Shown here: positions 9,759 to 13,883 of the stretch, piece by piece
Numbering within the stretch: position 1 is the first letter of the stretch
Layout of the letters: each line of letters begins with the position of its first letter
NCBI GenBank assembly: GCA_944324165.1
Contig: CALUVG010000001.1
Coordinates: forward strand, 2,773-66,772
Direction of reading: 5' to 3'
DNA from: Candidatus Gastranaerophilales bacterium
Lineage (GTDB): Bacteria > Cyanobacteriota > Vampirovibrionia > Gastranaerophilales > Gastranaerophilaceae
DNA length: 64,000 nucleotides
Notes under the pieces: generated by a model
What the model was told of the DNA's origin: nothing
What the model saw: only the letters and a program-made list of their open reading frames with translations
Databases searched by the model: none
Position numbers and translations under genes: made by a program

Positions 9759-11209
9759 TATTTCTCATCCTCAACTGTTGTTGTTACTGCCTGCGGCAAT
9801 GCCATGGCAAGTTCAAGATTAGCTCTTGCTACATTATAATTATATACTGTTTGAACATATTCTTGCTGCGCGCTGTTATATTTAACTTTTGCATCTTGAA
9901 GTTCAATATAATCACCCAGTCCAACCCCGTAACGACCGTCCGCAAGTTCAAAATTTTCAAGTGTTTGTTTAACTTTTACAGCCGCAAGCGGTATTTGTTT
10001 TTCCAATTGTATCATATTAACATATGCATTTTGTACTTCAAAATATATATTCTGCTTGCTCTGCTCAATCTCGTTTTCGGCAAGTTTAACCTGCAATTTA
10101 CCATTATCAATTTCAAACTTTTTCCCCACTATATTTAAAGAAGTGTTTAAACTAACTGAGACATTAAATGATTGTGTATTGTTTGTATCTCTATATCCAT
10201 AACCTGCACGCCCTTGAATTGAAGGGTAATATTCACGTTTGATATATAATAACGATTGTTTCATCGCCTCTAGCGTTGCATCAAAAGCTTTTAAATCCGG
10301 ACGATTTTTATATGCAAGTTCAACACTTTCTTCAAATGTATAAGGAAACGGATCAAATTTAAAATCTTCCAGAATATCTAATTTTTCAACCTTTGAAGTC
10401 AAAAAAGCATCGGACACACCTTCCGGAGGCGGGCTGATATCTACTTTGTCATCAATTTTTTCTAAACTAACCGGCACATTAGCATTAAAATTAAAGGTTT
10501 CAGTATTTGTTATTTCATATTCCGGCGCAAAAGCTATATACATAGAATTATTAAGTTTTACCAGTGCATTCTGATATTCTTTAACTGAATTTACAAGGGT
10601 TACTTTTGAATCACTTAAATTCACCTCAGCATTAACAAGATCAATTTTAGACTTAATACCTTCTTCAAAATAGGCTTTTGTTCTCTGGTAATTTCTCTCA
10701 TTTATCTGTACATTTGCCTTGTTTATATCAACAGCGGCTTTTGCAGCCAGAACGCCGTAATAATTTGTTTTAACTCCAAAAATTGTATCAAGAACTGTGT
10801 CATCAAATGAATATAAAGCGGCAATGGCATTAAATTTATTCATTCTTATATTGGCATTAGTTTTGCCAAAATCCCAAATCAATTGTGTTAAAGATGCTTC
10901 TGCGCTGTAATAATTGTTTCGACCTCGGCGCATTAAACTGCTGCTTGTTGCATTCTCCGTGGCGTAATAACCGGTTCCTACGCCTATTGTAGGAAAATAA
11001 TCAGACTTTGCAATACTTGTATTATTTTTTGAAACATTATAGTTATACCGTGCTTTTTTAATTGCCGGACTATTCTGCAATGCCAATTGAATACAGTCCG
11101 TTATAGAAAGAACTGCATTTTTTTGAATAGAAACATTTTCTATAGCTTCCACCGGTATAAATGCACCTAATAAAACTATCAGAAATATAGCTTTTATGAA
11201 TATCTTCAA
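9758..11209 (-). CDS. TolC-family outer membrane efflux protein
   Basis: Signal peptide MKIFIKAIFLIVLLGAFIPVEA and two OEP-type repeats. First gene of the operon, with a 1-nt TAATG overlap with the adaptor gene. Confidence 0.85.
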   Translation of the reverse strand: MKIFIKAIFLIVLLGAFIPVEAIENVSIQKNAVLSITDCIQLALQNSPAIKKARYNYNVSKNNTSIAKSDYFPTIGVGTGYYATENATSSSLMRRGRNNYYSAEASLTQLIWDFGKTNANIRMNKFNAIAALYSFDDTVLDTIFGVKTNYYGVLAAKAAVDINKANVQINERNYQRTKAYFEEGIKSKIDLVNAEVNLSDSKVTLVNSVKEYQNALVKLNNSMYIAFAPEYEITNTETFNFNANVPVSLEKIDDKVDISPPPEGVSDAFLTSKVEKLDILEDFKFDPFPYTFEESVELAYKNRPDLKAFDATLEAMKQSLLYIKREYYPSIQGRAGYGYRDTNNTQSFNVSVSLNTSLNIVGKKFEIDNGKLQVKLAENEIEQSKQNIYFEVQNAYVNMIQLEKQIPLAAVKVKQTLENFELADGRYGVGLGDYIELQDAKVKYNSAQQEYVQTVYNYNVARANLELAMALPQAVTTTVEDEK

Positions 11210-11360
11210 AATGTATTACGTCCTCAACAAATTATTACATTCATGAATATAACGATTTAAGCACATTGGGTGTTCATTTTAATCATTTAAATAAATTAAA
11301 AATTTCATTCAAAAAATTACATTAAACTCTAAGAATATACCTGAATATTTTTTACAATAC

Positions 11361-11386
11361 TAAAAAGCCCCTCGTCGGGGCTTTCT
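11361..11386 (-). terminator. Intrinsic terminator after the 95-aa ORF
   Basis: Minus strand reads AAAGCCCC-gacga-GGGGCTTTTTA. Confidence 0.75.
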
Positions 11387-11429
11387 ATCTAATGTAGACA
11401 ATGAAATATATGATTTGTGTTTATTTAAT

Positions 11430-11717
11430 CTAAAAGTGCATGTCAAAGCTAGGCGGCATACCGTTCATTTTTTCATCTTCCATACGCATTGCAGACCCGA
11501 TTGTGAAACTTTCTGCAAATAATTTATTAATTTGATAATTTATATCTCCATTGAACACATTTTCATTTTCTTCCAAAAATTTAAACAATGGATCTGCCGG
11601 AGATTTTGCAAGGTTGCCGAGAGTTTCACCAGCAAGTTTCAATGTTCTTTCCGGTACCTTTACATTCATCCCGAAAGGTTTGTATGGGCGATTAAATGAT
11701 GCACCTGCTTCTGTCAT
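11430..11717 (-). CDS. Hypothetical 95-aa soluble protein
   Basis: ORF with no TM segment and a terminator downstream. Lies directly downstream of the HNH-like gene. Confidence 0.5.
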   Translation of the reverse strand: MTEAGASFNRPYKPFGMNVKVPERTLKLAGETLGNLAKSPADPLFKFLEENENVFNGDINYQINKLFAESFTIGSAMRMEDEKMNGMPPSFDMHF

Positions 11718-11822
11718 ATCCGTTTACTTCCTTATTGACTAAGTTTAATTACACTTATTTATTCGGCATAATTTTGTCAAAAGTTTAGGCTTTTACTTAT
11801 TATTTTTACAATTGTTAATATT

Positions 11823-13205
11823 CTATTTAAATTTAGTAGTGTCAATTTTGCGTCCGCTCTCCTGAACAAATGTGTCCACCATTTTAAAGAACACATTTTT
11901 AGGCAGATTATTACGCTTTACTTCCTGCCATATATCCATAAAATAACGCTGCTGATTTGACTGTTTGAACTGCTCTATAAAATGATGCATATCTTCGCTG
12001 GAACGATTGTTGTTGTCACGTCCGCAGGCTAATGCAAAGTTACCTAATACATCAGGTCCGCCGAGTGACTTTGGATGCATATGTTCAATTGTTGCAAGTG
12101 AAGGTCTGAGCATATCATATCCTATGGCATCAGATGCTGCATTTTCATGCTTTGTAATAAATGAATTTACACTGGTTTGGGAATTTGGCAAACGTTTTAC
12201 AATATCATCAATTCTTTTACGCAACCCTTCATCCGGCATCCCCTCCAGTGCCTCATTCAAATCGTATCTAAATGCTTTATTACTGAATTTTACTTTAACC
12301 GGCTGACGGTCTATTGTTTTTAGTGCCGTGTCGCAAAGATTTAATAAATCTTTACGATTCAATATTTCTCCATACTTTGCAATTTGTCTTATTAATAATT
12401 TTTGAAGATAAACTTTATCGACCATCATATTATTAACGTCTCGAGTTTCTGTCATAGATAAAACTTTTGAAACGAATTTAGCATTCAAAGGAGTATCTTT
12501 TGACTTAAAAATAGGATGTGTTAACGGTTCTGCCAATTTTAGAATTCGTCCTGCAAGATAATCGTCTTTAATCGAATCGCTTATCCTTCCTATTTTGTAG
12601 GAAAATTCTTTGCCACTGAATTCATCCGGAATATATTCTTTTTCTTCCAGCCTGTAACGTGAAATTCTCATTAATTTATTAAATTTTGTTTTCCAGCCGC
12701 GAGGCAACTCATCACTTAATGCCGAAATTTCCTTCAAAATAGGTTTTTGTTCTTTTAAAAGTTCCTTATTTGCCTCAGGATATAGTCTTTTTATAGCTTC
12801 AGAAAGTCTGATATCCGGAGAGTCAAATGTCATCATCGTAATTTTCTTTAATGCTTCTTTTTCTGTTGGATGAAGATAATCGAGATAATTAAACATTTCC
12901 TGAACAAAATTTTTGATTGGACCAGAAAAAATTCCGGTATTTTTTAATCTTCCTGCAACTTTGTTACTCAGCATCGGACGTCCGCAATAAAGACAATGTA
13001 CAGTTCTTGTATTTGCAAGACTACGAAAATCTCCTGCACTGCGCAATATTCCAAATGTCGGCTGGCTTTTTATAAACACATCTTTAGAGGGCTGCATACC
13101 TGAAAAAGAAATTCTACCTGCAGTATAATCTTTCTGAGCATTTACCGGCTGATTTTTATATTGAAATATATTTGATGTAAGTACCCCTAATATCTTCATA
13201 TTCAT
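11823..13205 (-). CDS. Hypothetical 460-aa protein with C-terminal HNH (beta-beta-alpha-Me)-like motif
   Basis: C-terminus ATIEHMHPKSLGGPDVLGNFALACGRDNNNRS resembles (D/E)H..P.S.GG....N..L.C..CN..K. A CxxC (HCLYCGRPM) sits about 300 aa upstream. The helical region between them is lineage-specific. Confidence 0.7.
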   Translation of the reverse strand: MNMKILGVLTSNIFQYKNQPVNAQKDYTAGRISFSGMQPSKDVFIKSQPTFGILRSAGDFRSLANTRTVHCLYCGRPMLSNKVAGRLKNTGIFSGPIKNFVQEMFNYLDYLHPTEKEALKKITMMTFDSPDIRLSEAIKRLYPEANKELLKEQKPILKEISALSDELPRGWKTKFNKLMRISRYRLEEKEYIPDEFSGKEFSYKIGRISDSIKDDYLAGRILKLAEPLTHPIFKSKDTPLNAKFVSKVLSMTETRDVNNMMVDKVYLQKLLIRQIAKYGEILNRKDLLNLCDTALKTIDRQPVKVKFSNKAFRYDLNEALEGMPDEGLRKRIDDIVKRLPNSQTSVNSFITKHENAASDAIGYDMLRPSLATIEHMHPKSLGGPDVLGNFALACGRDNNNRSSEDMHHFIEQFKQSNQQRYFMDIWQEVKRNNLPKNVFFKMVDTFVQESGRKIDTTKFK

Positions 13206-13219
13206 ATAACTTCCATAAT

Positions 13220-13259
13220 AAAAAAATTTGCCGGTTTATTAAGAAATATTACCGGCAAA
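13220..13259 (-). terminator. Intrinsic terminator directly after tsaB
   Basis: Minus strand reads TTTGCCGGT-15 nt loop-ACCGGCAAA followed by TTTTTTT. The T-tract ends 14 nt before the ATG at 13205. Confidence 0.8.
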
Positions 13260-13268
13260 TTATAATTT

Positions 13269-13883
13269 TTATCCCATTGGCGGCGGCTGTATATATAGCG
13301 GTAGAAGCTCACCCCAATTGCCCGTTGCACTATTAATCTTTTCTTCTGCCAGAGATGCCAGAATTTCACCAAGCGGATAATTGTCAGCCTGATAGGAAAT
13401 ACCACCAAGCAAAGGTTGAAGTTTATTATCTGTTATAACATCATAATCTCCGTTTGCAATAATCTCTTTTACCTGTTCTAACGGCAATGCTCCTTTAATT
13501 TCATTATCACACAAAAGATAAGCCATATTTTTACGGGCATCCAATGCTACCAAAGGATTTTTGTCCGCCAGTTTTGACAAAATCTCAAGAGAAGATACGC
13601 CTACGGTTTTACAATTTAACTGCTGAGCCATAACCCGTGCGACTGTTGTACATGCACGTATTCCGGTAAAACTGCCGGGACCTATATTTATTGCTATTAA
13701 GTCTATATCAGAAGGTCTCACGTTATTTTGACTCATAATTTCCTGTAAAGTTGAAATTAAAAATGCAGAATGATACTTGGTATCTGTATTTTCAACCACA
13801 TCAGATGCAAGTATTTTGCCGTCTTTTTTAAGAACTGCATACATTTTGTCCAAACATGTATCAAAAGCTAAAATTGTTGTCAT
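13269..13883 (-). CDS. tsaB: tRNA t6A37 biosynthesis protein TsaB
   Basis: MTTILAFDTC..., IAINIGPGSFTGIRACTTVARVMAQ motif. Next to tsaE. Confidence 0.85.
   Translation of the reverse strand: MTTILAFDTCLDKMYAVLKKDGKILASDVVENTDTKYHSAFLISTLQEIMSQNNVRPSDIDLIAINIGPGSFTGIRACTTVARVMAQQLNCKTVGVSSLEILSKLADKNPLVALDARKNMAYLLCDNEIKGALPLEQVKEIIANGDYDVITDNKLQPLLGGISYQADNYPLGEILASLAEEKINSATGNWGELLPLYIQPPPMG

Follow-up and report, generated by a model that had tools for sequence, protein, structure and literature searches.

HNH nucleases are among the best-studied DNA-cutting modules and are found in Cas9, in colicins and in homing and restriction enzymes. The DNA analysed here (the window) is a 64,000-nucleotide stretch from a Candidatus Gastranaerophilales bacterium, the minus strand of which carries an open reading frame (ORF) of 460 residues, ORF460, followed by a small ORF of 95 residues, ORF95. 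An earlier note, made from the sequence alone, had read the two as a nuclease with a split HNH-like signature and its possible immunity protein. We favour, with a probability of about 0.6, the reading that ORF460 is a split-zinc-finger HNH nuclease belonging to a family confined to Gastranaerophilales and that ORF95 is a separate gene.

The zinc-finger HNH endonucleases (PF01844/PF14279; the Geobacter metallireducens enzyme 4h9d; phage HNH enzymes) have the same beta-beta-alpha-metal core as ORF460. The likeness to 4h9d and the phage enzymes extends to a [D/E]-H pair at the end of the first strand, a structural Asn and a Cxx[C]-N-N-x-[R/K] motif at the start of the helix. In the treble-clef finger of HNH domains, one zinc is shared between a knuckle and the N-terminal end of a helix (PMC4999995), an arrangement that ORF460 would also adopt. 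However, these enzymes have a few to ∼30 residues between the first CxxC and the catalytic His, whereas in ORF460 the CxxC lies 304 residues before the His, with a helical lobe between. ORF460 also differs from them in its putative fourth ligand, an Asp, in its leader and in three extra C-terminal helices.

Among solved structures and curated models, the nearest to the core are the HNH domains of type II-C Cas9 (GeoCas9, 8f43; NmeCas9, 5vgb and 8d2k) and of IscB, which resemble ORF460 in the D/E-H...N...N catalytic pattern and in having the HNH core within a larger helical protein. Unlike these, ORF460 has no RuvC domain, guide RNA or CRISPR array, and its NCBIfam match is to HNH only. In Cas9 the HNH domain is itself the insert, whereas in ORF460 a helical lobe appears to be inserted into the HNH zinc finger. 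Colicin E9/Im9 and the polymorphic toxin pairs share with this locus the layout of an HNH-type gene followed by a small acidic ORF, and a disordered N-terminus. They differ from it in that ORF460 and ORF95 do not co-vary, their linkage is not constant, the nuclease gene is a core gene of the lineage, and the locus has no delivery, receptor or lysis module and no plasmid or SOS context. In Anabaena, the secreted beta-beta-alpha-Me nuclease NucA is accompanied by an intracellular inhibitor, NuiA, that protects the producer. This likeness, a His-Me finger nuclease of the cyanobacterial lineage with a separate small protein, may serve as a lead. NucA has a Sec signal and belongs to Endonuclease_NS, while NuiA has its own Pfam family; neither family was matched in ORF460 or ORF95.

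The HNH core and the zinc finger of ORF460

The HNH signature is carried by the stretch ATIEHMHPKSLGGPDVLGNFALACGRDNNNRS, residues 371-402, and was borne out by several profile comparisons. Pfam PF01844 matched residues 370-403 with E = 1e-5 and 26 bits (cut-off 21.4), PHROGs HNH families matched with a best E of 4e-7, and a profile of the family matched the HNH endonuclease 4h9d in the PDB with E = 0.006, pairing TIEH with TMDH and CxxDNN with CKECNN. A search of the PDB with the single protein sequence gave no match. The PF01844 match covers only positions 13-46 of the 47 in the profile; since it starts at position 13, the first CxxC is locally absent. In NCBIfam, IscB and Cas9d matched below threshold over the HNH stretch (21 and 17.6 bits against cut-offs of 175 and 375). 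PF01844-type HNH was also matched in Pfam by 20 of 30 distant relatives. Contrary to what had been claimed, the motif does not end the ORF; 58 further residues (403-460) follow it and are modelled as three helices.

An AlphaFold2 model built on 34 relatives, with a predicted local distance difference test score (pLDDT) of 86.4 and a predicted template modelling score (pTM) of 0.79, divides the protein into the parts listed here with their window positions.

11823-13205, minus strand: ORF460, open frame of 460 residues, predicted split-zinc-finger HNH (His-Me finger) nuclease
13038-13205, minus strand: disordered leader, residues 1-56 (AlphaFold2 and a hidden Markov model, HMM)
12984-12995, minus strand: putative zinc knuckle C71-x-x-C74, first half-site of the treble clef (pLDDT 92-96; C71, Y73 and C74 invariant in 34 orthologues)
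12171-12968, minus strand: all-helical lobe between the zinc knuckle and the catalytic hairpin, residues 80-345 (AlphaFold2)
11994-12170, minus strand: HNH core, residues 346-404 (Pfam, AlphaFold2 and conservation)
11826-11993, minus strand: three C-terminal helices after the nuclease core, residues 405-460 (AlphaFold2)

In the model, the first strand (370-375), second strand (390-394) and helix (395-401) of the core all have pLDDT above 90. They are preceded by a helix bearing F349 and K352; the first strand ends in E374-H375, N389 precedes the second strand, which ends in C394, and the final helix carries D397 and N398. The beta-beta-alpha-Me fold suspected earlier was thus found at residues 370-401, and it superposed on HNH enzymes. 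Many phage HNH endonucleases matched the core with a root-mean-square deviation (rmsd) of 0.6-1.2 Å over 36-51 columns and a probability of 0.96-1.0 (Foldseek, BFVD), and the GeoCas9 HNH domain, 8f43, matched it with a probability of 0.82. Searches of the PDB and BFVD gave no significant match to the whole fold, the best whole-length matches being long helical proteins with a template modelling (TM) score of ∼0.1, and no structural match to the helical lobe.

The residues at the predicted active site are kept across the family. E/D374, H375, N389, N398 and K352 are each present in at least 189 of 193 relatives, including 69 that lack the zinc ligands, and the residues invariant in 34 orthologues comprise C71, Y73, C74, E374, H375, C394, N398 and R401. 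The catalytic residues appear to be under selection, and ORF460, which is basic overall (pI 9.5), is apparently a catalytically intact HNH nuclease. The C-terminal helical segment is also conserved in the family, as the HPEM..N.QKY.D.I motif of a short form described below.

The proximal pair of cysteines lies in HCLYCGRPM, residues 70-78, with C71 304 residues N-terminal of H375. The relation between this pair and the distal one was followed in an alignment of 197 family members of 300-560 residues, 190 rows of which have letters at all four sites. Where the N-terminal CxxC is present, 123 of 124 sequences have [C/H]xx[C/D/H] at the C-terminal site; where it is absent, none of 66 does. The C-terminal pairs among the 124 are CD (60), CC (56), HC (6), CH (1) and SL (1). 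By mutual information with average product correction, C74-D397 ranks first of 83,516 column pairs, with 72-391 at rank 39, 74-394 at rank 122 and 73-393 at rank 318. On a tree built without the four zinc-site columns, each trait required 8 parsimony changes, and the 3 well-supported independent contrasts were all concordant. The replacement of the second Cys of the distal pair, noticed earlier in this protein, is by Asp (D397); about half of the family has Asp instead of Cys at this fourth ligand position, and divergent members have CxxCNN where the window's genus has CxxDNN.

The coupling of the two half-sites is evident in the aligned sequences. From this co-variation and the treble-clef topology (PMC4999995), we infer that C71/C74 and C394/D397 form one zinc site that would be split by ∼295 residues. 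The proposal of a zinc-finger/HNH module divided by a large helical insertion was thus upheld, by the coupling of the half-sites and by the beta-beta-alpha core.

The family and its N-terminal leader

A search of 1.84 billion representatives with the family profile returned 1,810 clusters (defined at 50% identity) at E ≤ 1e-3 and 612 at E ≤ 1e-10. In a phylum-wide sample, each Gastranaerophilaceae genome listed encodes from 1 to 6 or more members of the family, often in tandem. Three genomes of another family in the same class gave no match, and other Cyanobacteriota gave only weak, generic HNH matches (1e-9 to 1e-14). ORF460 is the only family member in the window genome, and the gene occupies the same site in each of the five other genomes of the genus. 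In Pfam, the family proteins have HNH domains only. A search of the literature on Gastranaerophilales HNH proteins and Melainabacteria genomes found no paper describing the family, in agreement with the earlier remark that no described family has this split arrangement; neither a paper nor a curated family beyond generic HNH was found. These proteins appear to form a large, undescribed HNH family restricted to gut Gastranaerophilales, a non-photosynthetic group (Melainabacteria/Vampirovibrionia) related to cyanobacteria.

The family includes a short form of ∼350 residues, in which the shared leader and a C-P-C-C-G knuckle are followed by ∼110 helical residues leading to the core. Aligned with it, ORF460 has ∼115 extra helical residues, at about 187-300. 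In many genera, the interval between tsaB and the ORF95 homologue holds short (∼320 residues) and long (460-520 residues) HNH-family genes together (loci L021-L025, L028, L034, L044, L049, L053 and L063, the last with three genes); the window's genus has the long form only. Away from this syntenic site, an HNH paralogue at L080 (G008:C15) adjoins a gene that was read by eye as flagellin from its N-terminal sequence, and the gene beside an HNH paralogue at L081 (G020:C2) looks similar by eye.

The N-terminal ∼60 residues of ORF460 had been described as disordered, and AlphaFold2 agreed, with pLDDT below 50 for residues 1-51. The leader nevertheless has a consensus, M-K-I-x-[PG]-[IV]..N.., a polar stretch and then ..D-x-F....[ST]-F-x-G, and D42, F44, F51 and I54 are nearly invariant among orthologues. 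An HMM was made from residues 1-56 of family members and used to search all 2,910 ORFs of the window genome. It matched nine ORF N-termini at E ≤ 0.01, and gave no matches in shuffled N-termini or in internal segments. Leader-bearing ORFs in the window genome (G000) are as follows.

C4:28308-29810, leader-bearing by HMM
C2:48095-49012, leader-bearing by HMM
C4:175-1092, leader-bearing by HMM
C9:64277-65371, leader-bearing by HMM
C4:38702-39910, leader-bearing by HMM
C2:78725-79891, leader-bearing by HMM
C10:20782-21162, leader-bearing by HMM
C21:16024-17991, leader-bearing by HMM
C4:30153-31058, leader-like by eye
C4:31058-31963, leader-like by eye

In the bearers elsewhere in the genome, the polar stretch is followed by [DT]-T-[VL]-x-F-[ST]-G. 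Among these bearers are an AAA ATPase of the classic type, several unknown proteins and, as a weaker match, a GH77 4-alpha-glucanotransferase. As judged by the HMM, the leader is common to at least seven unrelated ORFs of the same genome. It is probably an address-like tag, by which the enzyme would be handled by a common targeting or export route.

Two of the bearers, C2:48095-49012 and C4:175-1092, are near-identical ORFs of 305 residues, one of them at a contig end, and represent either a recent duplication or an assembly repeat. The 402-residue product of C4:38702-39910 recalls by eye a RelA/SpoT-type pyrophosphokinase (SGYEDIQMRF ... HELIILFG...H...KVY); Pfam gave no match to it at E ≤ 1e-3.

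ORF95, the locus and rival explanations

The remaining features of the locus are listed with their window positions.

13218-13261, minus strand: hairpin and U-run 3' of tsaB (folded at 13225-13261 with its U-run, -15.4 kcal/mol, z = -3.6)
11718-11822, minus strand: spacer between ORF460 and ORF95, exactly 105 nt
11430-11717, minus strand: ORF95, open frame, small acidic lineage-specific protein
11361-11387, minus strand: intrinsic terminator 3' of ORF95 (-20.6 kcal/mol, z = -5.2)

The order of genes on the minus strand is YebC, a GGDEF cyclase, TsaE, TsaB, ORF460, ORF95, OEP (TolC-like), HlyD and a MacB-type ATP-binding cassette (ABC) exporter (Pfam). Coordinates and folding energies confirmed both ORFs, their 105-nt spacing and both terminator hairpins, and Pfam matches to the neighbours confirmed the location between the tsaB and tolC operons, all as described earlier. 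Both hairpins fold well, and a simple terminator scan detected neither. The tsaB hairpin, which ends ∼13 nt before the start of ORF460, recurs in five genomes of the genus; in G005 a single G-C pair is replaced by A-T in a compensatory change. A TATTAT box and an AGGAG/GGAAG Shine-Dalgarno sequence sit between its U-run and the ORF460 ATG (window 13206-13268). Given a terminator just before the gene and these elements, ORF460 would be expressed either by read-through or from a promoter overlapping the tsaB terminator. Two in-frame ATGs, M1 and M3, stand at the start of ORF460 (window 13197-13205; ATGAATATG), and the annotation of the relatives in G002 and G004 begins at the second, so that the true start may be M3. 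The spacer, which has a mean column identity of 82% over five genomes of the genus and no terminator, includes a conserved TTGACA/TTTACA box and, ahead of ORF95, the AAGGAAG Shine-Dalgarno sequence of that gene. An Rfam scan of positions 11000-13500 gave no match. The chromosomal setting of ORF460 is ordinary, with normal GC content, no PADLOC match and housekeeping neighbours.

ORF95 is slightly acidic, as had been stated (pI 5.07). It has homologues in 304 clusters, the best 120 of which are 73-99% identical to it. Its N-terminus, SFNRPYKPFG(.N), and its C-terminus, FDMHF, are invariant and probably unstructured, and its middle is helical. It had no family match in Pfam, NCBIfam, PADLOC or PHROGs, and its AlphaFold2 model was poor (pLDDT 56.5, pTM 0.23). 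By these comparisons, ORF95 ranks among the most conserved small proteins of the lineage. In one subclade it is part of a syntenic block, YebC-GGDEF-TsaE-TsaB-[1-3 HNH genes]-ORF95.

A toxin/immunity pair, with ORF460 as a colicin-E9-like or polymorphic-toxin nuclease and ORF95 as its cognate immunity protein, would account for the small acidic ORF that immediately follows, on the same strand, at ∼40 loci, for the intact nuclease residues and for a disordered N-terminus of the kind seen in colicin translocation domains. However, immunity proteins co-vary with their toxins, and over one and the same set of loci the identities are 76-100% for ORF95, 25-88% for the nuclease and 58-83% for TsaB; ORF95 is far more conserved than the nuclease, which argues against co-variation of this kind. 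The interval from tsaB to ORF95 varies in its content from one to three different HNH-family genes, yet has a single ORF95 in every case, and the closely packed tandem HNH arrays found elsewhere contain no small ORFs between the nuclease genes. ORF460 orthologues at 54-66% identity lie in another context, followed by a convergent flavin-reductase/rubredoxin-like gene and no small downstream ORF; in their genomes and in G015, tsaE-tsaB is followed by motA-motB, and the ORF95 homologue (42-45% identical) adjoins an alanine racemase gene. In G024, the tsaEB, nuclease and ORF95 homologues are all unlinked. Across genomes, therefore, the two genes do not consistently go together: in at least six genomes (G331-G334, G015 and G024) the ORF95 homologue is not linked to the nuclease family. 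No toxin-delivery, receptor, translocation or secretion-system domain was found in ORF460 with Pfam and NCBIfam, and no colicin DNase or immunity family was matched in Pfam, NCBIfam or PADLOC, where the defence models gave no match to either protein at E ≤ 1. The nuclease core is not at the C-terminal tip, being wrapped by the helical lobe and followed by 58 further residues, and the gene shows vertical descent in all the Gastranaerophilaceae genomes sampled, with a distribution that is neither patchy nor mobile. The toxin/immunity layout was thus not borne out; we consider it very unlikely, and judge from the sequence comparisons that ORF95 is an independent conserved gene and not a cognate immunity protein. 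Still less credible is a free-standing homing endonuclease or other selfish nuclease inserted between conserved genes. Such an element would fit a self-contained unit set between terminators and conserved genes, a slot with 1 to 3 copies, and best sequence matches to phage HNH endonucleases. Against it, no sampled Gastranaerophilaceae genome lacks the gene, which within the genus has diverged in step with its flanking genes; its surroundings show no intron, intein, repeat or phage gene, GC content is normal, and there is no empty site among the other genomes of the genus.

ORF95 might instead be a general partner of the HNH array, such as an inhibitor, chaperone or adaptor. If it recognised an invariant feature, for example the active-site face, one conserved copy would serve diverse nucleases. 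ORF95 stays at the 3' end of the array while the next gene changes (TolC-like here, PNPase in G009 and G021), the spacer is conserved, and invariant unstructured termini with a low-confidence lone fold suggest folding on a partner. But its homologues in other genera adjoin alanine racemase and membrane-protein genes, far from HNH genes, HNH-bearing genomes of family f8 have no detectable ORF95, and one conserved syntenic block would suffice to explain the adjacency. A role for ORF95 as a chaperone of the leader, or as its reader, was also considered, because ORF95 homologues elsewhere adjoin a gene whose product starts MINK...SFKGP, but this link between ORF95 and leader-bearing neighbours was dropped: the leader HMM gave E = 2.6-3.4 on that N-terminus, and the homologues of the adjoining gene in the window genome (contig C15) are not near ORF95. 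A general partner therefore seems unlikely to us. A separate observation concerns G000:C15:23445-26897, a tandem pair of ∼570-residue ORFs whose homologues in other genera adjoin an ORF95 homologue. An alternative that we regard as improbable, if somewhat less so, is that the leader is a non-Sec export signal and that ORF460 acts outside the cell, in DNA scavenging or antagonism; action outside the cell would explain why no immunity gene is needed. The leader is disordered, lies at the extreme N-terminus and is common to unrelated proteins, and the family is multi-copy and fast-evolving. However, the leader has no hydrophobic core and hence is not a Sec or Tat signal, the tagged genes inspected on contig C4 have only metabolic genes beside them and no secretion genes, and AAA ATPases and GH77 glucanotransferases are normally cytoplasmic, so that the presence of such enzymes among the bearers argues against simple export.

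For ORF460 as a split-zinc-finger HNH nuclease and ORF95 as a separate gene, several points weigh on the other side. The AlphaFold2 model is of P0001, a cluster representative with two differences from the window protein (P96S and S211T). The Foldseek E-values of the core (0.3-1.3) are not significant, because the core is short, and only the probabilities and rmsd values are good. The independent co-variation events are few, three contrasts being too few for a significant sign test, and the case for a single zinc site leans on co-variation together with the known treble-clef topology. Finally, ORF95 follows an HNH gene or array in ∼40 loci, in several genera and with a conserved spacer, and this might reflect some functional tie.

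Proposed mechanism and meaning for the lineage

In the mechanism that we propose, the chain would run from a 56-residue leader into the zinc knuckle C71/C74, out through a ∼265-residue helical lobe and back to the beta-beta-alpha core with C394/D397. By comparison with Cas9, IscB and phage HNH enzymes, hydrolysis, with DNA as the presumed substrate, would proceed by a one-metal His-Me mechanism. H375 would be the base that activates water, E374 and N398 would hold one Mg2+ or similar ion, and N389 would brace the hairpin in a structural role. The zinc site would staple the start of the lobe to the catalytic helix, and the basic lobe, lying over the active site, could select or clamp nucleic acid.

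The universal presence of the family, the expansion of its paralogues, the fast-evolving lobes and the lack of immunity genes favour a role in lineage-specific nucleic-acid surveillance or processing, which fits better than a bacteriocin. The options for the process served include DNA conflict, DNA or RNA processing, and delivery elsewhere through the leader. A more speculative idea, to which we would give little weight, is that the split-HNH paralogues and the other leader-bearing enzymes are cargo of an undescribed addressing or export route of Gastranaerophilales. The fast-evolving lobes, held to the active site by the split zinc finger, would then direct each paralogue to a different nucleic-acid target, and together the paralogues would make up a chromosomally anchored nuclease arsenal, delivered by the tag and without cognate immunity genes.

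For this locus, the comparison removes a tempting but wrong toxin/immunity annotation. In the family at large, a lobe of 190-295 residues would sit inside the zinc finger itself, an architecture that would show how far a treble-clef zinc finger can be pulled apart and that may serve as a natural scaffold joining a large recognition lobe directly to an HNH active site. The leader that ORF460 shares with unrelated proteins hints at a lineage-specific protein-addressing system. That these proteins are universal and multi-copy in an entire family of uncultured bacteria of the human and animal gut, with genomes of 2 Mb, points to a real gap in knowledge of these organisms.

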